Below are positions 900 to 22,288 of a stretch of DNA of 64,000 bases, piece after piece. The notes beneath the pieces are model-generated. The model saw only the letters and a program-made list of their open reading frames with translations, did no database searches and was not told the DNA's origin. The translations under genes were made by a program, and so were the position numbers. Numbering within the stretch: the first letter of the stretch is position 1; each line of letters starts with the position of its first letter. The DNA lies in the IMG/VR virus record IMGVR_UViG_3300021962_000022, one strand, 5' to 3'. Origin of the DNA: a virus (taxonomy: Duplodnaviria > Caudoviricetes).

Positions 900-907
900 T
901 ATAAATA
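900..907 (-). promoter_or_regulatory. Putative late promoter motif TATTTATA
   Basis: Exact motif about 10 nt upstream of the ATG at 890; recurs before structural genes. Confidence 0.6.
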
Positions 908-925
908 TTTTATTAACATTTTTTA

Positions 926-3214: not shown

Positions 3215-3225
3215 ATCTTATATCA

Positions 3226-3576: not shown

Positions 3577-3580
3577 ATTT

Positions 3581-3588
3581 CATAAATA
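3581..3588 (-). promoter_or_regulatory. Putative late promoter variant TATTTATG
   Basis: A few nt upstream of the ATG at 3576 (position approximate to +/-1). Confidence 0.5.
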
Positions 3589-3618
3589 TAAAAAATCATA
3601 TTTTATAATAAAGTATTT

Positions 3619-4326: not shown

Positions 4327-4328
4327 TA

Positions 4329-6155: not shown

Positions 6156-6171
6156 TTATTAATTTTCTATC

Positions 6172-6179
6172 TATAAATA
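6172..6179 (-). promoter_or_regulatory. Putative late promoter motif TATTTATA
   Basis: Exact motif 16 nt upstream of the ATG at 6155. Confidence 0.6.
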
Positions 6180-6199
6180 CTTAAACCATTATTTTATTT

Positions 6200-9100
6200 T
6201 TAACAAACTTCTTCACAACCACAACCGTGTGCCCCACCACAACAAGTTACACCATAAGAGAAACCTGACGTACCACCTAAATTAGGTATTGTATACCATA
6301 CACCTCTGTCGAATACCGCTAAGTACATTACTCTACTTATACATCTACTTTCAGTTGTTGCTGTGGTGTATAATCGTTGAAAGAATTGACCATCACAACA
6401 TTGATAATACATATAAACTTGACCATAATCTGTAATGTCTCGGTCAGTAATATTAATCTCCGTACACTTACAATCACACGCACCTATGACCGATACTGAA
6501 CCAGTCCACGGAAATCCGCCGACGTTAGGTGCTCCACAAGCGCATAAAACTAATTCGTGATTTCCACCATTTGCCTCCCAATAAGCGGGGTCAGACAATG
6601 TTTGGGCATTACCCTGACAATCTGTGTAACTAACAAAGTTCCAATTGTTTAATTGAGTTACTAACCATTCACGACAATCACATGGTGGTGTTGATGAAGG
6701 TGTTGGGGTTGGAGTTGGTGATACACCCGCAGCAGCAGGGGAACTTGATGGTGTTACAGAAGGGGTAACAGATGGAGTTAAAGATGGTGTAACCGAAGGT
6801 GTTGGTGTTCTACTTGGTGTAACAGATGGAGTTAAAGATGGTGTAACACTAGCGGTTCTCGATGGTGTAACCGAACTTGTTGGTGTAACGCTCGGGGTTA
6901 CTGATGGTGTAACTGAAGGTGTAACTGATGGAGTTACGCTGGCAGTTCTTGAAGGGGTAACAGATGGTGTTGGTGGTGGGGATGCTCCCGCTGTTCTACT
7001 TGGTGTAACACTAGCGGTTCTTGATGGAGTTAAAGATGGTGTAACCGAAGGTGTTGGTGTAACACTTGGTGTTCTTGACGGTGTAACACTTGGTGTTATC
7101 GATGGTGTAACACTAGCGGTTCTCGATGGTGTAACGGATGGACAATTTTGAAACGTTTCAAGAATACATTCTTCACAACTACCATAACTTGATGTATATA
7201 TCGGGCCGGTATTTGGTCCAAAGTCATCAAATCTTGCACATAATTGGGCTGATTGTATATAAAACACCGTTCCAATTGCCGTACCAATTGGTACTCTACC
7301 TTGATAAATTGTTGTATCACCAGCACAACATGAAGTAAACACCGCACCTATGTACTGTGGACTTGGTGATGGTGTTACAGAAGACGTTGGTGTTAATGAA
7401 GGTGTAATAGATGGTGTTACTGAACTACTTGGTGTAACTGAAGGTGTAACGGAAGGTGTAACGCTCGATGTTGGTGTCACAGAAGGTGTAACGCTCCGTG
7501 TTGGGTCTGGTGTTCTTGATGGTGTAGGAGTAACAGAAGGTGTAACGCTCGATGTTGGTGTCACAGAAGGTGTAACGCTCCGTGTTGGGTCTGGTGTTAC
7601 TGAACTACTTGGTGTAACTGAAGGTGTTGTACTTGGTGTAATTGAAGGTGTTACAGAACTACTTGGAGTTACAGATGGTGTTCTTGAAGGGGTGATAGAT
7701 GGTGTAACAGATGATGTTGCGGTTACTGATGGTGTTGTACTTGGTGTAATTGAAGGTGTTACAGAACTACTTGGAGTTACTGATGGTGTTGTACTTGGTG
7801 TAATTGAAGGTGTTACAGAACTACTTGGAGTTACAGATGGTGTTGTACTTGGTGTGATAGACGCGGTAACACTTGATGTTGGTGTTAACGACGGAGTGAT
7901 AGAAGGTGTTACAGATGGAGTTCTTGAAGGGGTCAAAGAAGGTGTTCTTGACGGAGTTGCAGTTACTGAACTTGTTGGGGTTGGTGATGGTGTTGGACAG
8001 GTAAATACCGCGTTACAACTTGCACAATCAGCGAATTTTGAACTAGCCAATGTATAGAAAGGATATGCACCATTTGCAATTAAAACAAATGATTGATAAC
8101 ATGTCCCTCCAAATGGATAAATTCCAGGGTTACCAGTTATGTAGTTAAAATCACCCTGTGTCATGTTGATGTTGTAAATATTGTTATCACAACAACTCTG
8201 TGTTTGTACCGACACAATTACAGTTGATGGTGTTACTGTAGGTGTAACTGATGGAGTCACAGAACTACTTGGGGTTACCGAAGGTGTTACAGAAGGTGTA
8301 ACGCTCGATGTTGGTGTTACTGTAGGTGTAACTGATGGAGTCACAGAACTTGTAGGGGTTACGGATGATGTAACGGAAGGTGTAATGCTCGATGTTGGTG
8401 TCACAGAAGGTGTAACGCTCCGTGTTGGGTCTGGTGTTCTTGATGGTGTAGGAGTAACAGAAGGTGTAACGCTCGATGTTGGTGTCACAGAAGGTGTCAC
8501 TGATGGTGTTACACTTGGTGTGACAGAACTTGTTGGGGTAACTGATGAGGTAACCGACGGAGTCACTGAGCTTGTTACCGATGGTGTAACTGAAGGTGTT
8601 ACACTTGGAGTTACTGAAGAAGTAACAGATGGTGTAACGGAACTTGTTGGTGTTACTGATGGTGTTACTGAACTTGTAACCGAAGGTGTTACAGAACTAG
8701 TTGGGGTGACTGAAGGTGTTAGTGATGGGGTAACTGATGCGGTTCTACTTGGTGTAACTGATGGTGTAACAGATGATGTTGGTTCTGGTGTTCTTGATGG
8801 TGTAACAGATGATGTTGGAGTTACAGAAGGTGTTGTACTTGGTGTGATAGAAGGTGTTACGGATGATGTTGCTGTCACTGATGGAGTTACAGAAGGTGTC
8901 ACGGATGGTGTAACAGATGATGTTGGAGTTACAGAAGGTGTTGTACTTGGTGTGATAGAAGGTGTTACGGAACTTGATGGTGTAACGGAAGGTGTTAATG
9001 ATGGTGTAACTGACGGTGTAACACTTGAAGTTGCTGTCACTGATGGAGTTACAGAAGGTGTCACCGATGGAGTAACAGATGATGTTGGTGTTACGGATGG

Positions 9101-12100
9101 TGTTCTACTTGGTGTAATTGACGGAGTTACAGAACTACTTGGAGTTACAGAAGGAGTAACCGATGAAGTGATACTCGGAGTTACTGAAGACGATGGTGTT
9201 ATTGAAGGTGTTGTACTTGGTGTGATAGAAGGTGTTACGGAACTTGATGGTGTAACGGAAGGTGTTAATGATGGTGTAACTGACGGTGTAACACTTGAAG
9301 TTGGTGTAATTGACGGGGTTACCGATGGAGTTACCGATGGGGTAACACTTGATGTCGGTGTAACACTTGGTGTCCTACTTGGTGTAACTGATGGTGTCAC
9401 AGATGAAGTTGCAGTTACTGAAGGTGTTGTACTTGGTGTGATAGAAGCCGTCACAGATGGTGTTACAGAACTACTTGGAGTTACAGAAGGTGTTGTACTT
9501 GGTGTTATTGAAGAAGTTACCGACGGAGTTACAGAACTACTTGGGGTAACTGAAGGTGTTCTCGATGAAGTGACAGAAGGTGTTACAGAAGATGTTGGTG
9601 TAACAGAAGGTGTTACAGAAGGAGTCACGGATGGTGTAACCGAACTACTTGGAGTTACTGATGGTGTTGTACTTGGTGTAAGTGATGGGGTAACAGAACT
9701 TGTAGGAGTAACCGAACTAGTAACACTTGGTGTGAGAGATGGTGTAACCGAACTACTTGGTGTAACTGAAGGTGTTGTACTTGGTGTAAGTGATGGAGTA
9801 ACTGAGCTACTTGGGGTTACAGAAGGAGTAACACTTGGTGTAACTGAGCTCGTAACACTTGGAGTAACTGATGGTGTAACACTTGGTGTAACTGAGCTCG
9901 TAACACTTGGAGTAACTGATGGTGTAACGGAACTACTTGGTGTAACCGAAGGAGTAACAGAACTTGTTACAGAAGGAGTAACAGATGATGTTGCAGTTAC
10001 TGAAGGGGTTACTGAAGGTGTAACTGAAGGTGTTACCGAACTTGTTGCAGTTACCGAAGGGGTTCTTGACGGGGTGACACTCGGTGTAACACTAGAAGTA
10101 GGTGTAACAGATGGAGTAACGGATGGTGTTACTGAACTTGTTATGGATGGTGTTACCGAACTAGTAACTGAAGGAGTAACTGATGGAGTCACACTTGGAG
10201 TTACGGATGATGTTGGTGTTACAGATGATGTCACCGAAGGGGTTATACTCGGTGTAACCGAACTAGTAGGTGTAACGGATGGAGTTACTGATGGTGTAAG
10301 TGATGGTGTAACGGAACTAGTAGATGTTACAGAAGGGGTTACTGATGGTGTAAGTGATGGTGTAACGGAACTAGTAGATGTTACAGAGGGGGTTACTGAA
10401 CTTGTAACACTTGGAGTAACTGAAGACGTTGGTGTTACCGAAGGTGTTACCGAAGGTGTAACCGATGGGGTTACTGAAGAAGTTGGTGTTACTGACGGTG
10501 TTACCGAAGGAGTTACAGAACTTGTTACCGAAGGTGTAACGGAAGGTGTTAAAGATGGTGTTATACTTGGTGTTACTGAAGGTGTTACGGAACTACTTGG
10601 TGTAACACTTGGCGTTCTTGAAGGAGTAACACTTGGTGTAACTGAACTTGTTGGCGTAACTGAACTTGTAACTGACGGGGTTATTGAAGAAGTAACACTT
10701 GGAGTTACGGAACTAGTAACAGATGGAGTGACACTTGGTGTTATAGATGGTGTAACAGAACTTGTGGGTGTTACTGATGGTGTAAGTGATGGAGTAACAG
10801 AAGGTGTTACTGACGATGTCGCGGTTACGGATGGGGTAACAGATGGTGTAAGTGATGGTGTTACCGAACTTGTTGGAGTAACAGATGGTGTAACGGATGG
10901 TGTAACAGAACTAGTAACTGATGGAGTAACCGAACTTGTTACTGAAGGAGTTACACTTGGAGTAATCGATGGAGTTACTGAAGATGTTGGAGTTACAGAA
11001 GGTGTTGTACTTGGTGTAATTGATGGGGTTACAGATGACGTTGCGGTTACGGATGGGGTAACAGATGGTGTAAGTGATGGTGTTACACTTGATGTTACTG
11101 ATGGAGTAACACTTGGTGTTCTTGATGGTGTTATAGATGGTGTAACTGAACTTGTCGGTGTAACTGAACTTGTAACAGATGGTGTGACAGATGGTGTTAC
11201 CGAACTAGTTGCAGTAACCGAAGGAGTAACCGAAGGGGTAACCGACGGAGTAACGGAACTTGTTGGAGTTATAGATGGTGTAACGGAACTAGTAACCGAT
11301 GGAGTTACACTTGATGTTACCGATGGGGTTACACTTGGTGTTACAGAACTTGTTACCGATGGTGTTACTGAACTTGTAACCGAAGGTGTAACAGAACTTG
11401 TAACTGACGGAGTAACAGAAGGTGTTACTGAACTAGTAGGTGTCACTGATGGAGTCACACTTGGTGTTACACTTGGAGTAACAGACGAAGTTGGTGTCAC
11501 AGATGGAGTAACCGATGGTGTTACTGAACTAGTAACCGATGGTGTAACAGACGATGTCACTGATGGAGTCACACTTGGTGTTACACTTGGAGTAACAGAC
11601 GAAGTTGGTGTCACAGATGGAGTAACCGATGGGGTTATACTTGGTGTTACCGAACTTGTTGGAGTTATAGATGGTGTAACGGAACTAGTAACCGATGGAG
11701 TTACACTTGATGTTACCGATGGGGTTACACTTGGTGTTCTTGACGGTGTTATAGATGGTGTCACGCTCGAAGTTGGTGTAACAGATGGAGTTACAGAACT
11801 TGTTACCGAAGGTGTTACAGATGATGTTGGTGTTACTGATGGTGTTACGGAACTTGTAACCGATGGAGTTACAGACGAAGTAACGGATGGAGTCACTGAC
11901 GGAGTAACCGATGGTGTAACCGAACTTGTTGCGGTAACACTTGGTGTCACACTTGAAGTAACGGATGGAGTCACTGAACTTGTTGGTGTTACCGATGGTG
12001 TTACTGATGGAGTTACGCTTGATGTCACTGAAGGTGTTACCGATGGGGTAACTGAAGGTGTTCTTGATGGTGTAACTGATGGTGTTACCGAACTTGTTGG

Positions 12101-15100
12101 AGTAACTGATGAGGTAACTGATGGAGTCACTGAAGAAGTGACCGATGGGGTAATGGATGATGTTGGAGTAACAGATGGTGTAACTGATGGTGTTAGTGAT
12201 GGGGTTACTGAAGACGTTGGGGTTACAGATGGTGTAACACTCGGAGTTATGGAACTCGTTACTGACGGAGTCACTGAACTTGTTACCGACGGTGTTATTG
12301 ATGGTGTTGCCGATGGAGTAACAGAACTTGTCGGAGTTACTGAAGGAGTTACTGATGGTGTTACCGAACTTGTTACGGATGGAGTTACCGAACTTGTAAC
12401 AGACGGAGTAACTGACGATGTCACAGATGGCGTAACACTTGATGTTGGAGTTACTGATGGTGTTACCGAACTAGTAACAGATGGTGTAACTGAACTTGTA
12501 ACAGAAGGAGTAACTGAAGGTGTTCTTGACGGTGTTACAGATGGTGTAACTGATGATGTCGGGGTAACTGATGGAGTTACAGAACTAGTAACCGATGGAG
12601 TTACTGAAGATGTTGGAGTAACAGATGGTGTTACACTTGGTGTTACTGACGCGGTTACTGATGGAGTTACAGATGATGTAACTGATGGGGTAACCGAACT
12701 TGTTACCGAGGGTGTTACTGACGAAGTTGGTGTTACTGACGGAGTTACTGATGGTGTTATACTTGGAGTAACAGAACTTGTTGGGGTTACCGAAGCCGTA
12801 ACAGAAGGTGTTACTGAACTTGTTACCGAAGGTGTTACGGATGATGTTACAGATGGCGTTCTACTTGGTGTAATAGATGGTGTTACGGAACTAGTTGGGG
12901 TAACTGAAGGAGTTACGGATGGGGTAACAGAACTTGTCACCGAAGGTGTTACAGATGGTGTTACGGATGGAGTAACCGATGGTGTAACTGATGGTGTAAC
13001 AGACGAAGTTGGTGTCACAGAAGGTGTAACCGATGGAGTGACACTTGACGTTACTGACGGAGTCACTGAACTTGTTACCGACGGTGTTATTGATGGTGTA
13101 ATAGATGGTGTTACTGAACTAGTTGGGGTAACTGAAGGAGTCACGGATGGGGTTACAGAACTAGTGACAGATGGTGTTACTGAAGGGGTTACAGACGGAG
13201 TAACTGACGAGGTTACAGAAGGGGTTACACTTGATGTTGGAGTAACTGAAGCGGTAACTGACGGTGTTACGGATGGGGTAACAGAACTTGTTACCGAAGG
13301 TGTTACAGATGGTGTAACAGAAGGTGTTACAGAAGATGTTGGTGTAACAGATGGTGTTACTGAAGGTGTTACCGACGGTGTTACAGAACTAGTTGGTGTT
13401 ACTGATGGAGTTACTGAAGGTGTAACGGAACTAGTGACAGATGGTGTTACTGAAGGTGTTACTGATGCGGTTACCGATGGAGTAACTGAAGAAGTTGGTG
13501 TAATCGATGGTGTCACAGACGAAGTTACAGAAGGTGTAACAGAACTTGTTGGCGTTACACTCGGAGTTACTGATGGTGTTATCGAAGGTGTTACTGATGA
13601 TGTAACAGATGGAGTTATACTTGGTGTAACTGAACTTGTAACACTTGGAGTCACAGAACTTGTAGGGGTTACGGATGATGTAACGGAAGGTGTAACCGAT
13701 GGGGTAACTGATGATGTCACCGACGGAGTGATAGACGGAGTCACACTTGATGTCACCGATGGTGTAACTGAACTGGTGGGTGTTACTGACGGTGTAATCG
13801 ATGGTGTAACGGAAGGTGTTATAGAACTAGTTACTGAAGGTGTTACAGAAGGTGTTCTACTTGGTGTTACTGATGGAGTAACGGAACTTGTAGGAGTTAC
13901 CGACGAAGTAACAGAAGGAGTTACTGAACTTGTAACTGATGGAGTTACAGAAGGGGTTAAAGATGGTGTTACAGAACTAGTGACTGACGGTGTTACCGAT
14001 GAAGTTGGTGTTACCGAAGGTGTGACAGATGGAGTAACAGATGATGTCACGGATGGCGTAACGCTTGGGGTAACACTAGGTGTGACTGAAGGTGTTACGG
14101 ATGGGGTTACTGAACTTGTTGGTGTTACAGAAGGTGTGACAGATGGAGTAACAGATGGTGTAACCGATGATGTTACCGATGGAGTAACCGATGGAGTGAC
14201 AGAACTAGTGACTGATGGTGTTACACTCGAAGTAGGTGTTACCGATGGAGTAACTGATGGTGTAACTGAACTTGTAACGGAAGGTGTTACTGAAGGTGTA
14301 AGTGATGGGGTGACTGATGACGTAACTGAAGGAGTCACTGATGATGTTGGGGTAACAGATGATGTTACTGAAGGTGTTACAGAAGGAGTTATCGATGATG
14401 TAACCGATGGTGTTACCGAACTAGTAACAGAAGGGGTTACACTTGGTGTTACTGATGATGTCGGTGTAACACTTGGTGTTCTACTTGGGGTAACTGATGG
14501 AGTTACAGAACTTGTAGGTGTTACTGACGGTGTTAATGATGGCGTAACTGAACTTGTAACAGAAGGTGTAACAGATGGTGTTACCGAACTAGTAACTGAT
14601 GGAGTTACACTTGGAGTTACAGATGATGTGGGTGTTACAGAACTTGTAACCGATGGAGTTACAGAACTAGTGACTGACGGAGTAACCGATGGAGTAACGG
14701 ATGGTGTAACTGAACTCGTAACCGAAGGGGTCACTGAAGAAGTTGGGGTAACAGAGGGTGTTCTACTTGGGGTGATGGATGGGGTGATGGATGACGTAAC
14801 TGAGGGAGTGACACTCGGAGTAACCGATGAAGTCACTGAAGGTGTAACACTCGAAGTAGGTGTCACTGATGGTGTAACCGATGGTGTAACTGATGAAGTA
14901 GGTGTCACTGATGGTGTAACCGATGGTGTAACTGATGAAGTAGGTGTCACTGATGGTGTAACCGATGGTGTAACACTCGAAGTAGGTGTCACTGATGGTG
15001 TAACCGATGGTGTAACACTCGAAGTAGGTGTCACTGATGGTGTAACCGATGGTGTAACTGATGAAGTAGGTGTAACCGATGAAGTCACTGAAGGTGTAAC

Positions 15101-18100
15101 ACTCGAAGTAGGTGTCACTGATGGTGTCACTGATGGTGTAACCGATGGTGTAACTGATGAAGTAGGTGTAACCGATGAGGTAACTGACGGTGTAACAGAA
15201 CTAGTGACCGATGGAGTTACAGAACTTGTTACCGAAGGTGTAATCGAAGGAGTTACCGACGGTGTCACAGACGAAGTTGGTGTTACAGACGGAGTTACAC
15301 TTGGTGTTACAGACGGAGTTACAGACGAAGTTGGTGTTACAGACGGAGTTACACTTGGTGTTACAGACGGAGTTACACTCGATGTTACAGATGGAGTAAC
15401 AGATGGAGTGACAGAACTAGTAACTGATGGAGTCACACTCGATGTTGGGGTAACTGAAGGAGTCACGGATGGGGTAACAGAACTTGTTACCGAAGGTGTT
15501 ACTGACGAAGTTGGTGTTACGGATGGAGTTACCGAAGGGGTAACAGAACTTGTTACCGATGGTGTTACAGAACTAGTAACTGAAGGTGTTAATGATGGTG
15601 TTATTGATGGTGTAACTGATGGAGTGACGCTCGAAGTAGGGGTTACTGATGAGGTGACAGAAGGTGTTACCGAACTAGTAACTGATGGTGTAACTGATGG
15701 GGTTACTGAAGGTGTTACAGAACTAGTAACCGATGGTGTCACACTTGATGTTGGAGTTACTGATGGTGTTGTACTTGGTGTAAGTGATGGGGTTACCGAT
15801 GATGTAGGTGTTACTGAAGGTGTTACCGATGGAGTAACACTTGAAGTAACTGACGGTGTAACGGATGGTGTTACACTTGGGGTAACACTCGATGTTACAG
15901 ATGGGGTCACAGAACTAGTTGGTGTAACAGACGATGTAACCGACGGGGTTATAGAAGGTGTAACTGATGGGGTTACAGAACTAGTAACTGATGGGGTTAC
16001 AGAACTTGTTACACTTGGTGTTACTGATGAGGTTGGAGTCACCGACGGAGTAACCGAAGGAGTAATCGAAGGTGTTACTGAACTAGTTGGTGTGACAGAA
16101 GATGTAACTGATGGTGTAACAGAGGGTGTAACTGATGATGTTGGGGTTACTGATGAAGTTACCGATGGGGTAACAGAACTTGTTACTGAAGGAGTAACCG
16201 AAGAAGTTGGTGTTACGGATGGGGTGACCGAACTAGTGACAGAAGGTGTTACCGATGGAGTGACACTTGAAGTAACTGACGGTGTAACTGAACTACTTGG
16301 GGTAACACTTGGGGTTACTGATGAAGTTACCGATGGTGTAACACTCGATGTCGGAGTTACTGATGGAGTAACAGAACTTGTTACTGACGGAGTTACTGAT
16401 GGTGTAACAGAAGGAGTAACACTCGGAGTTACAGATGATGTAACAGATGGTGTTACTGAACTTGTAGGGGTTACTGAAGGTGTTAGTGAAGCGGTTACCG
16501 ATGGGGTAACTGAACTTGTTGGTGTTACCGATGCGGTAACGGAAGGTGTGATAGATGGAGTAACACTTGGTGTCACCGATGAGGTTACGGATGGGGTAAC
16601 TGATGGTGTTCTACTCGGTGTTACTGACGGTGTAACAGATGATGTTGGTGTTACGGATGGTGTTACACTTGGGGTTACAGATGGTGTTACCGAACTAGTT
16701 GCAGTAACCGAAGGAGTAACTGAAGGTGTTACCGAAGGTGTGACAGAACTTGTAGGAGTAACCGATGAGGTAACAGATGGGGTCACTGATGAAGTTACTG
16801 ATGGAGTAACGCTCGATGTTGGTGTTACTGAAGATGTTACACTTGGTGTTAAGGATGGTGTGACTGATGATGTTACTGAAGGAGTTACTGATGGTGTTAT
16901 ACTTGGGGTTACAGATGATGTAACGGAAGGTGTTACTGACGATGTTGGGGTTACGCTCGGAGTTACGGATGCGGTAATAGATGGTGTTACAGAACTAGTG
17001 ACAGATGGTGTAACACTTGGTGTAACCGATGAGGTAACAGATGGGGTAACTGAACTACTTGGTGTAACGCTTGGTGTCCTCGATGGGGTAATTGATGGTG
17101 TAACAGATGAAGTTGGTGTAACTGACGGAGTAATCGAACTTGTTACAGATGGAGTTATTGAACTTGTTACAGATGGAGTTACAGAACTTGTTACCGAAGG
17201 TGTTAATGATGGTGTTACGGAACTAGTTGGTGTTACTGATGGTGTAAGTGATGGTGTGACAGATGGTGTGATAGATGGTGTAACCGAATTAGTGACTGAT
17301 GGTGTAACGGATGGTGTTACGGAACTCGAAACTGAAGGTGTTAATGATGGTGTAACTGAAGGTGTTAATGACGCGGTTACGGACGGTGTTAAACTTGGTG
17401 TTACTGAAGGTGTTGGTGTACTTGTTGGCGTTGGTGATGGTAACATCGTATAATCAATGTCACATGAAGGTGCTGGTGTAGGGGTTACTGATGGTGTTAA
17501 AGACGGAGTAACCGATGGAGTTACAGAACTAGTTGGTGTAACGCTTGGTGTGACAGATGGAGTTACTGATGGGGTGACAGAACTAGTAATAGAAGGTGTT
17601 ACCGATGAGGTTACACTTGGTGTTACTGAACTTGTAGGTGTAATTGATGGTGTAACGGAACTAGTGACCGAAGGTGTAACCGATGGTGTAACGGAACTAG
17701 TTGGGGTGACTGACGGAGTTCTACTTGGTGTTAGTGATGGTGTAATAGAAGGAGTTACACTTGGAGTAACTGAACTTGTTGGAGTAACACTCGGGGTTAC
17801 AGATGATGTAACAGAAGGTGTTACTGAACTTGTGACAGAGGGTGTTACTGATGGGGTAACAGATGGTGTTACACTTGGTGTTACTGAACTTGTAGGGGTT
17901 ACTGATGGTGTTCTAGATGTCGTAACGGAAGGGGTTACGGAACTAGTTGGTGTTACGGAACTAGTAACAGATGGTGTAACCGACGGCGTTACTGAACTAG
18001 TAACTGACGGAGTAACACTTGGGGTTTCACTTGGAGTAACCGAAGGTGTTTCACTTGGTGTTATCGACGGTGTAACCGAACTAGTAGGTGTAACCGAAGG

Positions 18101-21100
18101 TGTTTCACTTGGAGTGATTGACGGTGTTACAGAACTAGTTAGAGTAATGGAAGGTGTTATACTTGGGGTTACCGATGATGTTACTGAGGGAGTTATAGAT
18201 GGGGTTATACTCGGTGTAACCGATGCGGTGACAGATGGTGTAACTGAACTCGTGGGTGTAACTGATGGAGTTACCGATGCGGTGACAGATGGTGTAACTG
18301 AACTAGTAACACTTGGAGTAACGGATGCTGTAACTGAAGGTGTTATACTTGGTGTAACAGAACTAGTTGGGGTTACAGATGGAGTTTCACTTGGTGTTAT
18401 CGACGGTGTTATACTTGGTGTAACAGACGCAGTAACTGATGGAGTTATACTTGGTGTAACAGACGCAGTAACAGATGGTGTTACCGAACTAGTGGGTGTA
18501 ACCGAAGGTGTTTCACTTGGAGTTATACTTGGTGTAACAGAACTAGTGACTGATGGTGTAACACTTGCGGTAACGGAAGGTGTCACTGATGGTGTAACCG
18601 ATGCGGTAACTGATGGTGTTATACTTGGTGTAACGGAACTAGTAACAGATGGTGTCACCGAAGGTGTAACAGATGATGTCGGTGTAACACTTGGTGTTTC
18701 ACTTGGAGTTATACTTGGTGTAACTGATGATGTCGGTGTAACACTTGGTGTTTCACTTGGAGTTATACTTGGTGTAACTGACGGAGTAACACTTGATGTT
18801 GGAGTTACAGATGGGGTTATACTTGGAGTTACCGATGCAGTAACCGACGGTGTAACCGAACTAGTTGGTGTAACAGATGGAGTTTCACTTGGTGTGATAC
18901 TTGGTGTAACGGAACTAGTAACAGATGGGGTTATACTTGGAGTTACCGATGCAGTAACCGACGGTGTTACTGAACTAGTTGGGGTTACAGATGGAGTTTC
19001 ACTTGGTGTTATCGACGGTGTTACGGAACTGGTTGGTGTAACTGAACTAGTAACACTAGGTGTTATACTTGGTGTAACTGAACTAGTAGGTGTAACACTT
19101 GGTGTAACGCTTGGTGTTACGGATGAAGTAACCGAAGGTGTAACTGAACTAGTCGGTGTAACACTTGGTGTTTCACTAGGTGTAACCGATGCGGTAACAG
19201 ATGGTGTTACTGAACTAGTAGGTGTAACACTTGGTGTTTCACTTGGTGTGATTGATGGTGTTATACTTGGTGTAACGGATGATGTTGGGGTTACAGATGG
19301 AGTTTCACTTGGAGTTATACTTGGAGTAACCGACGGTGTAACTGAACTAGTTGGTGTAACAGATGGAGTTTCACTTGGTGTGATACTTGGAGTTATACTT
19401 GGAGTAACTGATGATGTTGGTGTGATAGATGGTGTAACTGAACTAGTAACTGATGGAGTTACAGAACTTGTTGGGGTTATAGACGGAGTTTCACTAGGAG
19501 TGATTGACGGTGTTATACTTGGTGTAACTGATGAAGTAACAGATGGGGTTACTGATGGTGTTACTGAACTAGTGACACTTGGAGTAACTGAACTAGAGGG
19601 TGTAACCGAAGGTGTTGCACTTGGTGTTATACTTGGTGTAACTGATGATGTTGGTGTGACTGATGGAGTTACAGAACTAGTAACTGACGGAGTAACACTT
19701 GATGTTGGTGTAACACTTGGTGTTTCACTTGGAGTGATTGATGGTGTTATACTTGGTGTAACGGAACTAGTAACACTAGGTGTTATACTTGGTGTAACTG
19801 AACTAGTAACAGATGGTGTTACCGATGGTGTTTCACTTGGTGTTATACTTGGTGTAGCAGATGGTGTTACTGAACTAGTAGGTGTAACACTTGGTGTTTC
19901 ACTTGGTGTAACGGAACTAGTAACAGATGGTGTTATTGAAGGAGTTACAGAACTAGTGACTGATGGAGTTACTGAACTTGTCACACTTGGTGTAAGTGAT
20001 GGGGTAACAGAACTTGTTGGAGTTACGGAAGGTGTGATTGATGGTGTAACTGAAGGTGTTCTTGAGGGTGTTAAACTTGGTGTTACAGATGAACTTACAG
20101 ATGGAGTAACCGAACTTGTAACCGAAGGGGTTACGGAACTAGTTGGTGTTACGGAACTAGTAACAGATGGTGTTATTGAAGGAGTTACGGAAGGTGTTAA
20201 TGATGGTGTTACAGATGATGTTACAGAAGGGGTTACCGAAGGTGTTACAGAAGGTGTAACTGATGACGTTGGTGTTACGGAACTAGTAATCGATGGGGTT
20301 ACACTTGAAGTAACAGATGGTGTAACTGAACTAGTAACTGAAGGTGTTAATGATGGTGTTCTTGATGGTGTAACAGAAGGAGTTACGGATGAGGTTGGTG
20401 TAACCGATGAGGTAACCGATGGTGTAACCGAACTAGTAACTGAAGGGGTTACCGAGCTCGTTACTGATGGAGTAACACTTGAAGTTACAGAAGGAGTTAC
20501 GGAAGGTGTTATACTCGAGGTTGGGGTTACTGACGGTGTCAATGATGGTGTAACGGAACTAGTGACCGAAGGTGTAACCGATGGTGTAACTGATGGAGTG
20601 ACACTTGGTGTAATCGATGGGGTAACAGATGATGTTGGGGTGACTGACGGTGTTATACTTGGTGTAATTGATGGGGTTACCGATGATGTAGGTGTTACTG
20701 AAGGTGTTACCGATGGAGTGACACTTGAAGTAACTGACGGTGTAACGGATGGTGTTACACTTGGAGTCAATGAACTTGTAACTGATGGTGTTACAGATGA
20801 TGTCGGAGTTACTGATGGAGTAACAGAGGGTGTAACAGAACTAGTAACTGATGGTGTTACTGATGGTGTTAGTGATGGTGTAACTGAACTTGTAACAGAA
20901 GGTGTTACCGATGGTGTAACTGAACTAGTGACCGAAGGTGTAACCGATGGAGTTACAGACGAAGTTGGGGTTACACTTGGTGTGATTGACGGGGTAACCG
21001 AAGGGGTTACAGAACTAGTAACACTTGGAGTTACGGAACTGGTAACAGATGGTGTTACCGATGGAGTTACAGATGATGTTGGTGTTACTGAAGGGGTTAC

Positions 21101-22195
21101 TGAACTTGTTATCGATGGTGTTAATGATGGGGTTACTGAACTTGTTGGTGTTACAGAGCTTGTAACTGACGGTGTAACACTTGAAGTAATTGATGGTGTA
21201 ACACTCGGAGTTACGGAACTTGTTGGAGTTACAGATGGTGTGACTGATGGTGTGATAGATGGTGTAACCGAACTAGTAGGTGTAACTGATGGAGTTACTG
21301 AAGCGGTTATAGATGGAGTCACTGAACTCGTAACAGATGGTGTAACGGAACTTGTTGGGGTTATAGATGGTGTTAAAGACGGAGTAACCGATGGTGTAAC
21401 TGATGGAGTTACTGAACTTGTTGGTGTAACAGAACTAGTAACAGATGGTGTTACTGAAGAAGTTGGTGTAACAGATGTGGTAACCGATGGTGTTACTGAA
21501 GGTGTAACCGACGAAGTTGGTGTTACAGACGGAGTCTCACTTGGAGTTAACGACGGTGTTAAACTTGGTGTTACTGAAGAAGTTGGTGTAACAGATGTGG
21601 TAACCGATGGTGTGATAGAAGGAGTAACTGATGGTGTAACACTTGGAGTAACTGAACTTGTTGGTGTTACACTTGGAGTCTCTGAAGGTGTAATAGATGG
21701 AGTTACAGAGCTAGTGGGTGTGATTGATGGTGTAATCGAGCTAGTTGGAGTTACAGAAGGTGTAACTGATGGTGTAACATCTGGTGTTCTTGTTGGTGTA
21801 ACCGATGGGGTTGGGGTAATTGAACTCGTTGGAGTAACTGATGGAGTCACTGATGGAGTTGAAGTTACTGATGGGGTTGTTGTGACAGTTGGTGTTACTG
21901 AAGGTGTGGTTGTGACAGTTGGTGTAACAGGAGGTGTACTTTGTGGTGTTGGCGTTAAACTTGGTGTAACAGAAGGTGTAATTGAAGGTGTTGGGGATGG
22001 ACAATTAATTGCCGCGTAACATGTTTTGTCATGCGATGGAAAATAAACTGAATAGGTTCCTAAGTAATAAGTTGTGTCGTAATAATACGGCATCACAACA
22101 GTACCTAAATTAATGGTACCGCCAGTACAGGGATAAAATGTGATAACACCAATTTCACCATCAAAATTACCTGTGTTTATCTTTATTAATGCCAT
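6200..22195 (-). CDS. 5331-aa giant mucin-like (TPSV/TSSV repeat) protein with N-terminal domain and C-terminal Cys-rich modules
   Basis: Uninterrupted 16-kb ORF with plausible non-repetitive N- and C-termini, a dedicated upstream promoter, and synonymous variation concentrated at wobble positions of this frame. Confidence 0.85.
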   Translation of the reverse strand: MALIKINTGNFDGEIGVITFYPCTGGTINLGTVVMPYYYDTTYYLGTYSVYFPSHDKTCYAAINCPSPTPSITPSVTPSLTPTPQSTPPVTPTVTTTPSVTPTVTTTPSVTSTPSVTPSVTPTSSITPTPSVTPTRTPDVTPSVTPSVTPTSSITPSITPTSSVTPSITPSETPSVTPTSSVTPSVTPSVTPSITPSVTTSVTPTSSVTPSLTPSLTPSETPSVTPTSSVTPSVTPSVTTSVTPTSSVTPSVTSSVTPTSSVTPSVTPSVTPSLTPSITPTSSVTPSVTSSVTPSITASVTPSVTPTSSVTPSITPSVTPSVTPTSSVTPSVTPSITSSVTPSVTSSVTPTSSVTPSLTPSITSSVTPSVTPTSSVTPSVTPSVTSSVTPSVTSSVTPSVTPSITPSVTPTSSVTPSVTPSVTSSVTPSVTPSVTSSVTPSLTPSVTPSVTSSVTPSVTPSVTPTSSVTPSVTSSLTPSVTPSVTPSVTSSVTPSVTPSVTPTSSVTPSITPSITPSVTPTSSVTPSITPSVTPSVTPSVTPSVTSSVTPSLTPSVTPTSSITPSVTPSVTSSVTPSVTSSVTPSVTSSVTPSVTSSVTPTSSVTPSVTPSRTPSLTPSVTSSVTPSVTSSVTPSITSSVTPTSSVTPSVTPSVTPSVTSSVTPSLTPSVTPSITPSVTSSVTPTSSVTPSVTSSVTPSVSSSVTPSLTPSRTPSVTPSITPSVTPTSSVTPSLTPSVTSSVTPSVTSSVTPSITPSVTSSVTPSETPSVTPTSSVTPSATPSITPSETPSVTPSVTSSVTPSITPSVTSSVTPSITPSITPSETPSVTPTSSVTPSVTSSVTPSVTPTSSVTPSITPSATPSVTPSSSVTPSVTSSVTPSVTPSVTSSVTPSITPSITPSETPSITPTSSVTPSVTSSVTPSITPTSSVTPSITPSITPSETPSVTPTSSVTPSVTPSITPSETPSVTPTSSVTPSITPSITPSETPSVTPTSSVTPSVTASVTPSETPSVTPTSSVTPSVTSSVTPSVTPSVTPTSSVTPSITPSVTSSVTPTSSVTPSITPSETPSVTPTSSVTPSVTASVTPSITPSVTSSVTPSITPSETPSVTPTSSVTPSVTASVTPSITPSVTPTSSVTPSVTPSITPSETPSVTPTSSVTPSITPSETPSVTPTSSVTPSVTPSVTSSVTPSITPSVTASVTPSVTPSVTASVTPSVTSSVTPSITPSETPSVTPTSSVTPSVTASVTPSITPSVTASVTPSITPSITPSETPSVTPTSSVTPSITPSVTASVTPSVTSSVTPSVTASVTPSVTPTSSVTPSVTASVTPSITPSITPSVTSSVTPSITPSITLTSSVTPSITPSETPSVTPTSSVTPSITPSETPSVTPSETPSVTPSVTSSVTPSVTPSVTSSVTPTSSVTPSVTTSRTPSVTPTSSVTPSVTPSVTPSVTPSVTSSVTPSVTSSVTPSVTPTSSVTPSVTPSITPSLTPSRTPSVTPTSSVTPSVTPSVTSSVTPSITPTSSVTPSVTSSVTPSITSSVTPSVTPSVTPSVTPTSSVTPSVTPSLTPSVTPTPAPSCDIDYTMLPSPTPTSTPTPSVTPSLTPSVTASLTPSVTPSLTPSVSSSVTPSVTPSVTNSVTPSITPSVTPSLTPSVTPTSSVTPSLTPSVTSSVTPSVTSSITPSVTSSITPSVTPTSSVTPSITPSRTPSVTPSSSVTPSVTSSVTPSVTPSVTSSVTPSITASVTPSVTPTSSVTPSVTSSVTPSITPSVTPSVTSSVTPSLTPSVTSSVTPTSSVTPSVTSSVTPSVTSSVTPTSSVTPSVTPSVTPSVTATSSVTPSVTPSVTPSVTPTSSVTPSVTPSRTPSVTPSVTSSVTPSVTPSITPSVTASVTPTSSVTPSVTASLTPSVTPTSSVTPSVTSSVTPSVTPSVTPSVTPSVTSSVTPSVTPTSSVTPSVTSSVTPSVTPSSSVTPSVTSSVTPSVTPSVTSSVTPSVTPTSSVTPSVTSSVTPSVTSSVTPTSSVTPSVTPSVTSSVTPTSSVTPSITPSVTPSVTPTSSVTPSVTSSVTPSVTSSVTPSVTPSITPSVTSSVTPTSSVTPSVTSSVTPSVTPSVTPSVTSSVTPSVTPSVTPTSSVTPSLTPSTTPSVTPTSSVTPSVTSSVTPSVTPSVTPSVTSSVTPSVTSSVTPTSSVTPSVTPSITPSLTPSVTSSVTPSVTSSVTPSVTPSVTPTSSVTPSVTSSVTPSVTPSVTPTSSVTPSVTSSVTPSVTPSVTSSVTPSVTPSVTPSVTPTSSVTPSVTPSVTPSVTPTSSVTPSVTPSITPSVTSSVTPSVTSSVTPSVTSSVTPTSSVTPSVTPSVTPSVTPTSSVTPSVTSSVTPTSSVTPSVTPSVTPTSSVTPSVTPSVTPTSSVTPSVTPSVTPTSSVTPSVTPSVTPTSSVTPSVTPSVTPTSSVTPSVTSSVTPSVTPSVTSSITPSITPSRTPSVTPTSSVTPSVTSSVTPSVTPSVTPSVTSSVTPSVTSSVTPTSSVTPSVTPSVTSSVTPSVTPSVTSSVTPSLTPSVTPTSSVTPSVTPSRTPSVTPTSSVTPSVTPSVTSSVTPSVTSSITPSVTPSVTSSVTPTSSVTPSVTSSVTPSLTPSVTPSVTSSVTPSVTPSVTPTSSVTPSVTSSVTPSVTPSVTSSVTPSVTPSVTPSVTPTSSVTPSVTPSVTPSVTPSVTPSVTSSVTPSVTPSVTPTSSVTPSVTSSVTPSLTPSVTPSVTSSVTPSVTSSVTPTSSVTPSVTPSRTPSVTPSVTSSITPSVTPSITPSVTPTSSVTPSVTSSVTPSITPSVTSSVTPSVTPSVTSSVTPTSSVTPSVTSSVTPSITPSVTSSVTPSITPSVTPSVTPTSSVTPSVTSSVTPSITPTSSVTPSVTASVTPSVTPSVTSSVTPSVTPSVTPTSSVTPSVTPSVTPSVTPTSSVTPSVTPSVTPSVTSSVTPSVTPSVTASVTPTSSVTPSVTSSVTPSVTPSVTPSVTSSVTPSVTPSVTPTSSVTPSITPSITPSVTSSVTPSVTSSVTPSVTPSVTPTSSVTPSVTPSVTPSVTPSVTPSVTSSVTPSVTPSVTPTSSVTPSITPSRTPSVTSSVTPSVTSSVTPSVTASVTPTSSVTPSITPSVTPSVTPTSSVTPSVTSSVTPSVTSSVTPSVTASVTPSVTPSVTPTSSVTPSVTSSVTPSVTPTSSVTPSVTPSRTPSVTPSVTSSVTPSVTSSVTPSVTPTSSVTPSVTSSVTPSVTSSVTPSVTSSVTPSVTPSVTPTSSVTPSATPSITPSVTSSVTPSVTSSITPSVTPSVTPTSSVTPSLTPSVTPSVTPTSSITPSVTSSVTPSVTSSVTPTSSVTPSVTPSRTPSVTPSVTPSVTSSVTPSVTPSVTPTSSVTPSVTSSVTPSVTATSSVTPSVTPSVTPSVTSSVTPSVTSSVTPSVTPTSSVTPSVTSSVTPSVTPTSSVTPSITPSRTPSVTPSVTSSVTPSVTSSVTPSITPTSSVTPSITPSVTPSVTPTSSVTPSVTPSVTPSVTSSVTPSVTSSVTPSVTPSVTPTSSVTPSVTPSVTPSVTPTSSVTPSVTPSVTSSVTPSVTSSVTPSVTSSVTPSVTPSVTSSVTPSVTSSVTPSITPTSSVTPSVTPSVTPSVTATSSVTPSVTPSVTSSVTPTSSVTPSITPSRTPSVTPSVTSSVTPSLTPSVTPSVTATSSVTPSITPSTTPSVTPTSSVTPSITPSVTPSVTSSVTPSVTSSVTPSVTPSVTPTSSVTPSLTPSVTPSVTATSSVTPSVTPSLTPSVTPTSSVTPSITPSVTPSVTSSVTPSVTSSITPSVTSSVTPTSSVTPSVTPSRTPSVTPSSSVTPSVTPSITPSLTPSVTPSVTSSVTPSVTPSVTPTSSVTPSVTPSVTPSVTPTSSVTPSVTSSVTPSVTSTSSVTPSLTPSVTPSVTSTSSVTPSLTPSVTPSVTPTSSVTPSITPSVTSSVTPTSSVTPSVTPSVTPSVTSSVTPSITSSVTPSVTPSVTPTSSVTPSVTPSRTPSVTATSSVTPSVTPSVTPSVTATSSVTPSVTSSVTPSVTPSSSVTPSVTPSVTSSVTPSVTPSVTPSVTSSVTPSVTPSVTPSSSVTPSLTPSTTPSVTPSSSVTPSLTPSVTSSVTPTSSVTPSLTPSTTPSVTPSSSVTPSVTPSVTPSVTPTSSVTPSVTSSRTPSVTPSSSVTPSVTSSITPSTTPSVTPSSSVTPSVTASITPSTTPSVTATSSVTPSVTPSRTPSVTPTSSVTPSVTPSVTPSITPTSSVTPSVTPSLTPSVTPSSSVTPSITPSTTPSITPSSSVTPSITSSVTPSVTPSSSVTPSITPSRTPSVTPTSSVTPSVTPSVTPSVTATSSVTPSVTPSLTPSVTPSSSVTPSITPSTTPSVTPTSSVTPSVTPSVTPSVTATSSVTPSITPSTTPSVTPTSSVTPSRTPEPTSSVTPSVTPSRTASVTPSLTPSVTPTSSVTPSVTSSVTPSVTPTSSVTPSVTSSVTPSVTPSVTPSVTSSVTPSVTSSVTPTSSVTPSVTPSVTPSVTPTSSVTPSVTPTPSRTPDPTRSVTPSVTPTSSITPSVTSSVTPTSSVTPSVTPTVTPTSSVTPSVTPSVTPSSSVTPSVTPTVTPSTVIVSVQTQSCCDNNIYNINMTQGDFNYITGNPGIYPFGGTCYQSFVLIANGAYPFYTLASSKFADCASCNAVFTCPTPSPTPTSSVTATPSRTPSLTPSRTPSVTPSITPSLTPTSSVTASITPSTTPSVTPSSSVTPSITPSTTPSVTPSSSVTPSITPSTTPSVTATSSVTPSITPSRTPSVTPSSSVTPSITPSTTPSVTPSSSVTPDPTRSVTPSVTPTSSVTPSVTPTPSRTPDPTRSVTPSVTPTSSVTPSVTPSVTPSSSVTPSITPSLTPTSSVTPSPSPQYIGAVFTSCCAGDTTIYQGRVPIGTAIGTVFYIQSAQLCARFDDFGPNTGPIYTSSYGSCEECILETFQNCPSVTPSRTASVTPSITPSVTPSRTPSVTPTPSVTPSLTPSRTASVTPSRTAGASPPPTPSVTPSRTASVTPSVTPSVTPSVTPSVTPTSSVTPSRTASVTPSLTPSVTPSRTPTPSVTPSLTPSVTPSVTPSSSPAAAGVSPTPTPTPSSTPPCDCREWLVTQLNNWNFVSYTDCQGNAQTLSDPAYWEANGGNHELVLCACGAPNVGGFPWTGSVSVIGACDCKCTEINITDRDITDYGQVYMYYQCCDGQFFQRLYTTATTESRCISRVMYLAVFDRGVWYTIPNLGGTSGFSYGVTCCGGAHGCGCEEVC
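8220..22000. repeat. About 13.8-kb low-complexity coding repeat (3-5 aa units: TPSV, TSSV, TPSI, TPSE, TPSR, TPST)
   Basis: Direct reading; repetitive at protein level, degenerate at DNA level. Confidence 0.95.
14853..15062. repeat. Five near-identical 42-bp tandem copies ([14 protein letters not shown])
   Basis: gaagtaggtgtcactgatggtgtaaccgatggtgtaac(tgat/actc) at 14853, 14895, 14937, 14979 and 15021. Confidence 0.9.
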
Positions 22196-22235
22196 TTAAA
22201 TCTACAGTCTTATCTATATCTATTTTTATTATAAA

Positions 22236-22264
22236 AATATACTCAATTTTTAGGGGTTTGTCAA
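22236..22264 (-). promoter_or_regulatory. Sigma70-like promoter TTGACA-N17-TATATT upstream of the giant repeat gene
   Basis: -35 at 22264-22259, exact 17-nt spacer, -10 at 22241-22236, 40 nt before the ATG. Confidence 0.7.
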
Positions 22265-22288
22265 CGTCTATTTTTATTGTTTTTATCA

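Follow-up and report, generated by a model that had tools for sequence, protein, structure and literature searches.

A 5,331-residue mucin-like protein encoded by an uncultivated phage: a possible glycosylated virion tether derived from a short linker protein

In dilute waters, phage infection is limited by how often phage and host meet. Long phage appendages such as the fibritin whiskers of T4, the head filament of phiCbK and tail fibres, which combine an N-terminal virion anchor with a distal sensor or binding end, aid initial reversible adsorption. In bacteria, the serine-rich-repeat (SRR) adhesins (Fap1, GspB, SraP) carry [S]-X stalks of thousands of residues, which present a binding region and to which dedicated cytoplasmic transferases attach O-GlcNAc. 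Mucin-type O-glycans are also found in protists, whose mucin domains are initiated on Thr by GT60 enzymes, the pp-alpha-GlcNAc-transferases (PMC8724618, PMC9472816, PMC3769586). Phages, too, can modify their own particles: by the account given in PMC12619734 (citing Freeman et al. 2023, PMC10527164), glycosyltransferase (GT)/methyltransferase operons of mycobacteriophages decorate virion proteins, with short glycans attached C-terminally to capsid and tail-tube proteins.

Here we describe a giant gene found in a stretch of 64,000 nucleotides (the window) that belongs to a large freshwater/estuarine, uncultivated, distantly T4-like contractile-tailed phage; the near-complete genome of a close relative is 288 kb long. 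The gene is a single frame of 5,331 codons that is open throughout 16 kb (Table 1), as the initial annotation had it, and the translation bears out the parts that were described there, namely a 65-aa N-domain, a PTS array and, at the C-terminal end, four Cys-rich modules (aa 4664-4733, 4947-5018, 5172-5244 and 5244-5331), with PTS linkers of 213 and 153 aa between modules. Residues 66-4663 form the run of about 4,600 residues that had been noted (4,598 aa, 94.9% T/P/S/V), broken only by a 15-aa motif, and the protein as a whole contains 1524 S, 1368 T, 963 P and 921 V, i.e. 2,892 Ser/Thr. The 4,598-aa run has just 24 Arg and lacks Lys altogether, which leaves trypsin next to nothing to cleave. 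A signal peptide or transmembrane (TM) segment is indeed absent, the highest 19-residue Kyte-Doolittle mean being only 1.17, within the N-domain. Codon usage, array 2 included, is like that of other genes of the same phage.

Table 1. Positions in the window of the giant gene, its parts and its neighbours.
Feature	Position	Strand	Remarks
Giant gene	6200..22195	(-)	5,331 codons + stop; 518.6 kDa unmodified; pI 5.45
N-domain (aa 1-65)	22001..22195	(-)	Ig-like beta-sandwich; proposed anchor
PTS array 1 (aa 66-1573)	17477..22000	(-)	[S/T]-X phase occupancy 0.996; lag-2 autocorrelation 0.71
Mini-motif PAPSCDIDYTMLPSP (aa 1574-1588)	17432..17476	(-)	sole array break; conserved
PTS array 2 (aa 1589-4663)	8207..17431	(-)	[S/T]-X phase occupancy 0.999
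Cys-rich module A1 (aa 4664-4733)	7997..8206	(-)	no tblastn counterpart in orthologues
Cys-rich module A2 (aa 4947-5018)	7142..7357	(-)	49-57% identity in G001, G005, L018
Terminal modules B+C (aa 5172-5331)	6203..6682	(-)	pair of beta domains, proposed as distal binding tip; 35-44% identity in orthologues
Sigma70-type promoter-like site TTGACA-N17-TATATT	22236..22264	(-)	~40 nt upstream of ATG; 11/12 match
1,413-aa structural-module protein, upstream neighbour	22289..26530	(-)	synteny marker; 215 IMG/VR relatives
ORFs of 608, 235, 116, 762 aa	926..6155	(-)	downstream of giant gene

Within the array, [S/T] and X alternate in a strict phase, whose occupancy is 0.996-0.999 across 4,565 residues, and the repeat signal is far above chance. 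In every orthologue [S/T] fills one phase at 99-100%, while the X residues vary (V/P; N/P/V; I/P/V; N/L/P); a hydroxyl at every second position is thus the sole invariant feature of the array. The mini-motif PAPSCDIDYTMLPSP lies between aa 330 and 1574 in orthologues, other than G005, from which it is missing. A small number of further N-domain proteins have CDFDVD-like forms of it.

The N-domain is modelled with confidence as an Ig-like beta-sandwich of six strands (AF2 pLDDT 88.7), for which fold searches returned generic Ig-like matches only (Z<=6). Against RemA-CTD, a C-terminal sorting domain of type IX secretion, it scored Z 6.0 (rmsd 2.7 Å, 62 residues aligned), and against several Por_Secre_tail clusters it reached TM 0.58-0.68 without a sequence match, the domain being N-terminal here and C-terminal there. 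A PDB sequence search with the N-domain profile gave no match. Neither Pfam (E<=1) nor PHROGs matched the N-domain or modules A1, A2 and B+C, and searches of Pfam and PHROGs with the mid-array region were likewise negative. A profile search with the N-domain gave 474 clusters at E<=1e-3, of which 241 reached <=1e-10; in almost every case the match covers residues 1-67. The family is defined by a 65-aa domain at residue 1 with the motif N..G....ITFYP..GGT.NLG....PY.Y...Y.GTY..YF. Judged by this profile, the N-domain heads a large, unnamed, mostly phage-associated family of at least 474 clusters. A PT stretch of at least 20 aa was present in 115 of the 150 representatives taken from the best 150 of the 474 clusters, and partner domains include LRR+PKD, Laminin_G_3, Fib_succ_major, peptidases and a ConA-like lectin. 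The family layout is therefore an Ig-like N-domain, then a Pro/Thr linker, then interchangeable binding or enzymatic modules, and the giant protein has the same order. Of the earlier suggestion of an N-terminal anchor with variable tips, what stands is this layout, since hundreds of modular proteins begin with the N-domain and differ in their C-terminal parts.

Syntenic orthologues in other assemblies are similarly large, spanning 2,737-5,472 aa (5,472 aa in three assemblies, 4,989, at least 4,673, 2,940 and 2,737 aa), and their N-domains are 70-98% identical, compared with 35-45% for modules B+C. A distant relative (L074) instead has a pair of N-domain proteins at this locus (325 and 329 aa), whose PT linkers measure 30-60 aa. 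The giant protein is thus a linker expansion and looks like an ordinary short phage linker protein lengthened roughly 100-fold; by this comparison the linker in its lineage, once tens of residues long, has grown to 2,700-5,500.

The C-terminal tip is more difficult to place. Modules B+C are modelled with AF2 pLDDT 84.7 and pTM 0.79, and their best PDB match (Z 4.0) points to no convincing known fold; AFDB clusters gave no convincing match either. No match to the tip was obtained by tblastn against 50,697 phage records or by a related-locus search with the tip alone, the homologue search with it found none among giant-length proteins and, for the tip alone, three short fragments, and Protein Atlas returned low-scoring viral hypotheticals only. 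As regards known fibre families or folds, the parts searched had no PHROG or Pfam match, and fold scores stayed at Z<=4.0 for the tip and <=6 for the N-domain.

The initial annotation had proposed a search for glycosyltransferases. Glycosyltransferase genes were examined in the related genomes G001, G005 and G006 rather than in the window's own genome, and they are plentiful in the close relative, GT60-type enzymes included. G001 has two tandem PF11397 (GT60-type) genes (244.4 and 165 bits, cut-off 21); there are two more in G005 and one in G006, and none in the control genomes (0/14). Searching IMG/VR gave 193 relatives of the GT60-type proteins. A GT60 gene of G001 is located at L097:1318-2574. 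One of the G001 GT60-type proteins was read and lacks an N-terminal TM segment, so that glycosylation would take place in the cytoplasm, like that of Skp1. A 12-kb operon of G001 contains 4-5 GT2-type genes, two FkbM methyltransferases and two epimerases, and a search of G001 for GtfA/GtfB-type enzymes yielded, besides GT2-type genes, a sub-threshold GT-D-like match (21.9 bits, cut-off 27). A PDB sequence search with the GT60-type protein found no match. GT60 loci adjoined N-domain genes in 0/80 cases and PT-rich genes in 8/80, and in G001 the GT60 genes lie 141 kb away. Many of the phage's proteins contain PT linkers, so the giant protein need not be the specific acceptor.

We propose that the N-domain would dock the giant protein on the particle, at a low-copy site that gene order suggests to be the tail or baseplate, and that the [S/T]-X array would be a non-globular thread, which cytoplasmic GT60-type GlcNAc-transferases of the phage, together with the GT/methyltransferase operon, probably turn into a stiffened bottle-brush. 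The thread would hold the Cys-rich beta modules far off the particle, where a host surface or polymer matrix may first be touched, reversibly, by these modules, and such distal contact would enlarge the capture radius. A protein of 5,331 aa is costly, and there could therefore only be few copies at most. The 1.1-1.4 µm initially quoted for the filament is correct as a fully extended contour length, not as a reach, since an unmodified random coil of this length has a computed rms end-to-end distance of ~70 nm. We infer virion attachment, glycosylation, a ligand and a function in capture, the attachment being argued from gene order and domain logic, and we would put the chances that the protein is a virion-anchored, O-glycosylated tether with distal binding modules at about even. 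More tentative, and somewhat doubtful in its entirety, is a broader proposal, namely that the lineage carries out mucin-type O-glycosylation by itself in the cytoplasm, GT60 enzymes acting as initiators and the GT/methyltransferase operon serving elongation, with the [S/T]-X thread of 2,700-5,500 residues as the main substrate, and that the result is a micron-scale bottle-brush 'tentacle', anchored on the virion via the Ig-like N-domain and tuned in length by repeat expansion.

One may also consider an array that carries no glycans and serves as an entropic or structural spacer, or as a regular beta/PPII assembly, while the GTs act on the host envelope, DNA or other proteins. This would fit GT genes that are unlinked to the giant gene, the failure to find a prolyl hydroxylase-type (PF13640) gene in G001 or G005, and the alternating hydroxyl/hydrophobic S/T-V/I/P pattern, which is also that of amphipathic beta strands. 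However, regular beta sheets are disfavoured by a Pro that recurs roughly every four residues, the one invariant of the array, its hydroxyl at every second position, is what an O-glycosyltransferase would need, and GT60 is a polypeptide-acting family; we consider an unglycosylated array unlikely.

The genomic neighbourhood bears on where the protein ends up. The tail/baseplate gene block has the giant gene as its distal member, on the same strand as the structural genes, although not directly after the baseplate operon as had been stated, since six ORFs without assignment (1377, 586, 276, 388, 305 and 1413 aa) separate it from the gp25-like and gp6-like wedge genes at 35418-37806. The 648-aa protein that had been taken for a tape measure matched no family, so the tail length of ~100 nm derived from it is conjectural. 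A giant or N-domain gene directly follows the 1,413-aa gene. Upstream of a different N-domain gene (L093), the neighbouring protein (2,320 aa) has no homology to the 1,413-aa protein, which means that synteny indicates no universal partner of the N-domain, and PHROGs searches with neighbours of other N-domain genes gave nothing informative. Downstream of the giant gene, the 608-, 235- and 762-aa proteins consist of PT linkers and Cys-rich modules without an N-domain, and their sole match is phrog_15511, of unknown function. No match was found by tblastn with the 1,413-aa neighbour, the 608-aa paralogue and a 702-aa downstream homologue against the 50,697 phage records, by megablast with 9.7 kb of the window, or by PDB sequence searches with the 1377-, 586-, 1413- and 388-aa neighbours. 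No published account of such a protein came up, and the report on 'moraphages' (PMC12619734) makes no mention of such a giant gene. Neighbouring structural genes are preceded by the motif TATTTATA; the giant gene has the sigma70-type promoter-like site instead, by sequence prediction the best-scoring one within 20 kb, with both hexamers kept in G001 and G005 (TTGATT in L018). This difference could reflect non-late expression of the giant gene. Among RNA data sets none was listed as containing the gene, and the RNA runs with matches contained small shares only.

Such a promoter-like site is one reason to think of a protein that is made in the infected cell and either acts there or is released at lysis, as a glycoprotein gel or decoy to trap competing phages or grazers, or to aggregate debris and progeny. 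The lack of a signal peptide and a size that is extreme among assembly components would also agree with this. Nevertheless, a conserved N-terminal domain followed by swappable distal modules is the layout of a virion-attached fibre, the gene resides among structural genes and on their strand, and family members of ~325 aa resemble ordinary fibre or decoration proteins, making a non-virion role distinctly unlikely in our view.

If the protein is on the particle, it may still be on the head rather than the tail: the Ig-like N-domain could dock Hoc-style on the capsid or neck, with glycosylated threads as 'hair', a coat that would protect the virion or make it adhere to mucus, EPS or particles. 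Small Ig-like sandwiches are the usual fold class of phage decoration proteins, the lineage encodes many glycosyltransferases, and virion glycan shields are known from mycobacteriophages, as reported in PMC12619734 (citing Freeman 2023). Yet the giant gene sits in the tail/baseplate block away from the head genes, high-copy decoration of a capsid by a 519-kDa protein would presumably outcost the capsid itself, and the variability of the binding modules at the distal end speaks for a specific ligand, not a passive coat. We regard this arrangement as quite improbable.

Obviously, all of this presupposes that the array is real. Its long-range order and the exact length of 5,331 aa come from one assembly. 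The array DNA is a degenerate repeat, with self-identity of ~66%, and in contigs from four public runs 29-30 of 30 bins of the gene were covered with zero indels. None of the Logan contigs bridges the array, and 'joints' on the short side are as expected from repeats. Since orthologues are similarly long as well, assembly inflation is unlikely, and the doubt raised initially about inflation or frameshifts is answered to the extent that the frame is intact and near-identical repeats are absent. That the array was misassembled or inflated, or that the gene is decaying and not translated end to end, is very improbable: it is true that IMG/VR contigs of 100% identity end at the start of the giant gene and that one orthologue assembly (G002, 97% identity) is frameshifted (net -253 nt), but the array lacks near-identical repeats that could have been inflated (identity over >=150 bp does not exceed 77%, and no exact repeat is longer than 111 bp), five other assemblies have intact frames of 2,737-5,472 aa, and the frame joins two ends, N-domain and C-terminal modules, that each have homologues.

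Should the protein prove to be part of the virion, no appendage protein known from a tailed phage would come near it in length, and no mucin-like or SRR-like glycoprotein thread would have been described from such a phage before. Adsorption models would have to change for a tether that multiplies the capture radius, by a several-fold rise if the tentacle reading is true, in which case it would also be a new class of phage appendage. The N-domain family provides a large unannotated group of proposed anchors (at least 474 clusters) and a natural series of linker lengths from ~30 to ~5,000 residues on one scaffold, and combined with the GT60-type genes these make phage-encoded protein O-glycosylation directly testable.

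Among known systems, fibritin whiskers, head filaments and tail fibres are folded structures 50-300 nm long, built as trimeric coiled coils or beta-helices, whereas here we see a low-complexity thread with no sign of a trimerisation motif. In mycobacteriophages the glycans are placed on structural subunits, whereas the candidate acceptor here is a dedicated protein with its thousands of Ser/Thr. The PT linkers of cellulases and CBM proteins are similar in their Pro/Thr composition and in joining small modules, and are often O-glycosylated, but they are 20-100 aa long, ~40-100 times shorter. Animal gel-forming and tethered mucins share the architecture of PTS regions flanked by Cys-rich modules, and to this extent the original comparison with them holds; in contrast, the phage protein has no signal peptide, its phase is a strict two-residue one, the candidate initiating enzyme is of a different family, and mucin hallmarks (vWF-D/C8/TIL, SEA, cystine knot) had no Pfam match in its N-domain or Cys-rich modules at E<=1. 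Protist mucins (T. cruzi, Dictyostelium) resemble it in their Thr-rich PTS, and relatives of the phage encode PF11397 proteins, yet the protist enzymes that glycosylate mucins are Golgi membrane proteins with secreted substrates, unlike the phage GT60 that was read. The SRR adhesins have a comparably long dipeptide repeat. They have dedicated GtfA/GtfB enzymes and an accessory SecA2/SecY2 system, and they differ in their KxYKxGKxW extended signal peptide and LPxTG anchor, neither of which has a counterpart in the giant protein, itself devoid of any hydrophobic segment, and in that their binding modules lie between two SRRs, whereas those of the phage-encoded protein are C-terminal and its candidate initiator is GT60, not GtfA/B. 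Nonetheless, in its strict dipeptide phase the giant protein is closer to the bacterial serine-rich-repeat adhesins than to animal mucins.

The gene occupies one uninterrupted frame of 5,331 codons, in which 4,776 residues are Ser, Thr, Pro or Val, the four accounting for 94.9% of positions 66-4663. This frame and composition bear out the initial annotation of a 16-kb ORF with an N-terminal domain (N-domain), a T/P/S/V array and four Cys-rich C-terminal modules, and the finding is both real and unusual. PTS linkers of 213 and 153 residues lie between modules. No hydrophobic segment was found in the protein (the top 19-residue Kyte-Doolittle mean, 1.17, lies within the N-domain), nor was an LPxTG motif. 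The minus-strand frame is the true one, since homologues exist for both its ends; the two long plus-strand ORFs were rejected as genes, being shadows of the repeat composition that should not be annotated.

Features of the window and of a related genome assembly (G001)
Feature	Position	Strand	Details
Giant gene	6200-22195	minus	
N-domain	22001-22195		65 residues, ahead of array
Mini-motif PAPSCDIDYTMLPSP	17432-17476 (aa 1574-1588)	minus	15 residues; array's sole interruption and sole Cys
Cys-rich modules (four)	aa 4664-4733, 4947-5018, 5172-5244, 5244-5331		C-terminal to array
Antisense ORF	8181-17453	plus	3,090 aa; GVTDGVTE... repeats
Antisense ORF	17457-22019	plus	1,520 aa; GVTDGVTE... repeats
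1,413-aa neighbour	22289-26530	minus	upstream of giant gene
Four downstream ORFs		minus	608, 235, 116, 762 aa
gp6-like wedge protein	35418-37250	minus	
gp25-like wedge protein	37252-37806	minus	
Replication/nucleotide island	37859-46097	minus	RNR large and small subunits, DnaB-like helicase, exonuclease, UvsX-like recombinase, SSB
Baseplate/hub protein	60748-61497	minus	T4-type
Tail tube	61598-62086	minus	
Tail sheath	62415-63935	minus	
TATAAATA (TATTTATA on coding strand)	900-907, 6172-6179, 35371-35378, 58635-58642, 60607-60614, 62128-62135	plus	
Two tandem PF11397 genes, 'Glycosyltransferase (GlcNAc)'	G001 (locus L097), 265.4-267.5 kb		244 and 165 bits

That the length is an assembly artefact is the least likely explanation. 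Repeats in the gene have periods of 12, 18, 24, 54 nt and higher, with units 60-88% alike (Tandem Repeats Finder); exact repeats reach 111 bp at most, and no 120-mer occurs twice. Self-BLAST matches of at least 150 bp within the array reach at most 77% identity (median 66%), so recent large duplications are absent and an assembler has no near-identical sequence to inflate. Codon usage in the array is that of the window's other genes, with serine encoded by both TCN and AGT, arguing for long-term selection at the protein level. Logan contigs from four public runs, belonging to four studies, covered 29-30 of 30 bins of positions 5500-23000 without indels, two runs (X1 and X3) being practically identical to the window and two (X9 and X11) representing a strain at 95-99%. 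These contigs are short and none bridges the array, and IMG/VR contigs 100% identical to the window end at the gene's 5' end, so the exact 5,331 aa rests on one assembly. The lengths of orthologues support the scale independently.

A comparison with related phages agrees with the long frame originally called. IMG/VR contains 215 relatives of the 1,413-aa neighbour, and in every long-enough relative at 67% identity or more an N-domain-headed, PTS-rich ORF directly follows it. Long frames recur, at 2,737-5,472 aa: 5,472 aa in three separate assemblies (G001, G003 and G004), 4,989 aa in G007, at least 4,673 aa in G008 (where the frame leaves the contig end), 2,940 aa in G005 and 2,737 aa at locus L018. 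In G002 (L090), which is 97% identical to G001 (L089) over 14 kb with a net difference of -253 nt, the frame is broken into 4,267-aa and 1,144-aa pieces, reflecting either strain variation (an array indel variant) or assembly error. Between the window and G001, DNA alignment is confined to the N-domain and mini-motif regions, despite 89% protein identity of the neighbouring gene. In the more distant relative L074, where the neighbour is 51% identical, the giant's position is taken by two proteins of 325 and 329 aa, both built of N-domain, a 30-60-aa PT linker, module, PT linker and module. The giant is thus an enlarged form of a short modular protein of an ordinary kind.

One phase of the dipeptide repeat is a hydroxyl residue at 99-100% in every orthologue, over thousands of residues, and the other position varies by lineage (V/P in the window, N/P/V in G001, I/P/V in L037, N/L/P in L043); the constraint therefore falls on having [S/T] in alternate positions and Pro often, not on any one sequence. 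A chain of this kind cannot be globular. The array's computed contour length is 1.15-1.56 µm, set by the rise per residue, so that the 1.1-1.4 µm originally proposed holds as a contour scale but is an upper bound, against a computed rms end-to-end distance of about 73 nm for the chain as an unmodified coil, and would be approached only under heavy glycosylation or tension. The mini-motif PAPSCDIDYTMLPSP occurs in most orthologues, splitting the array anywhere from aa 330 to 1574, and is absent from G005; a few other N-domain proteins carry CDFDVD-like versions in their linkers. This island could be a disulfide, strand-addition or processing site.

Orthologues share 70-98% identity in the N-domain. 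Among 1.84 billion representatives, a profile search returned 474 clusters at E<=1e-3 (241 at <=1e-10), with the domain almost always at residues 1-67. The proteins listed span 69-1,727 aa (median 340), and 115 of the top 150 have a PT stretch of at least 20 aa, mostly directly after the domain; C-terminal partners include LRR+PKD, ConA-like Laminin_G_3, Fib_succ_major and peptidase domains. Their sole source annotation is 'hypothetical protein', and the gene contexts examined were large contigs with very large adjacent ORFs. An AlphaFold2 model from 121 sequences confidently predicts a six-strand all-beta domain (pLDDT 88.7), for which fold searches gave only generic Ig-like, FN3 and MG sandwiches (Z<=6). 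Among structural matches were the type IX secretion C-terminal domain of RemA (Z 6.0, rmsd 2.7 A, 62 residues) and several Por_Secre_tail clusters (TM 0.58-0.68), a likeness to Bacteroidota sorting domains that is no better than that to other Ig-like sandwiches and for which no sequence-level support was found; if real, it would bear on host phylum or receptor mimicry.

At the other end, orthologues share module A2 and the terminal B+C unit at 35-57% identity, and some carry extra modules. B+C is confidently modelled as two beta domains (pLDDT 84.7, pTM 0.79), with no convincing match among solved or predicted structures (C2 domains and a fucose lectin came closest, at Z 4.0). The tip has a faster rate of evolution than the anchor, which is usual for receptor-binding ends. 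Virion-anchored fibres and decoration proteins pair a conserved N-terminal domain with interchangeable distal modules, a layout that the giant's would match. The likeliest reading is that the giant serves as a virion-anchored, O-glycosylated tether and keeps its binding modules well away from the particle. A rival reading is a capsid hair coat.

Every gene of the giant's block lies on the minus strand; the replication island separates two blocks of tail genes, all on the same strand. Six ORFs between the gp6-like gene and the giant, including the 1,413-aa neighbour, had no PHROGs or Pfam matches, and a PDB sequence search with four of them (1377, 586, 388 and 1413 aa) gave none; the 648-aa ORF initially called a tape measure likewise matched nothing in family searches. 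The closest cultured sheath homologue is 42% identical, and the phage collection held no DNA-level match to the window. Downstream of the giant, the 608-, 235- and 762-aa proteins have PT linkers and small Cys-rich modules, without an N-domain.

No sigma70-type site in 20 kb matches better than TTGACA-N17-TATATT, which lies about 40 nt upstream of the giant's ATG and is conserved in G001 and G005. The word TATTTATA, the T4 late-promoter word in reverse complement, stands in intergenic gaps 4-40 nt before six minus-strand structural genes, including the one directly after the giant; TATAAATA occurs 8 times in all, no more than chance, but its placement is striking. It is a candidate late-promoter or leader element. 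No exact copy of TATTTATA precedes the giant gene. Together with the sigma70-type site, this may mean that the 16-kb gene is transcribed earlier than its neighbours, or may equally hint that its product is not a late virion component, which would favour the rival reading of a non-virion, released glycoprotein. No Shine-Dalgarno sequence was found before the giant (22150-22200) or the next gene (6150-6200), compatible with weak-SD hosts such as Bacteroidota or cyanobacteria.

The proposed O-glycosylation of the tether would draw on glycosyltransferase genes, a class that the initial annotation suggested searching for and that was examined in close relatives, where G001 has many. In G001 (288 kb; CheckV completeness 92%) a compact 12-kb operon, its 15 genes tightly packed, lies about 31 kb beyond the giant gene. 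It encodes four or five GT2-type transferases, two FkbM methyltransferases, a UDP-GlcNAc 2-epimerase, an NAD-dependent epimerase/dehydratase and a sub-threshold GT-D-like protein. PF11397, which corresponds to the polypeptide GlcNAc-transferases of CAZy family GT60, is represented by the two tandem genes in G001, by two genes in G005 and one in the distant G006, and in 0 of 14 control prokaryote genomes; the G001 protein with a full reading has its catalytic domain from the start and no N-terminal TM segment, which would place its activity in the cytoplasm. IMG/VR contains many GT60 homologues (193 relatives), but these adjoin N-domain genes at 0 of 80 loci and PT-rich genes at 8 of 80. On L095, an 84.6-kb ENA contig, 6.5 kb separates a PF11397 gene and an RXYLT1_C-type transferase from a 1,727-aa N-domain protein, which adjoins a subtilisin-like 935-aa protein. 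In T. cruzi and Dictyostelium, GT60 enzymes attach alpha-GlcNAc to Thr within mucin-type domains (PMC8724618, PMC9472816, PMC3769586). A search of G001 and G005 for a prolyl-hydroxylase-type gene (PF13640) found none, which favours direct Ser/Thr modification over a hydroxyproline route. Co-occurrence and chemical fit are what would tie these enzymes to the giant protein, and the rival to a glycosylated array is an unglycosylated spacer.

Our literature search found no description of such a phage protein, nor of phage GT60 enzymes; for the large aquatic 'moraphages', core glycosyltransferases are reported and a gene of the giant's type is not (PMC12619734). The two closest analogues are the bacterial serine-rich-repeat adhesins and the GT60-initiated mucins of protists, and the giant belongs to neither, because it lacks the signal peptide and anchor features of both.
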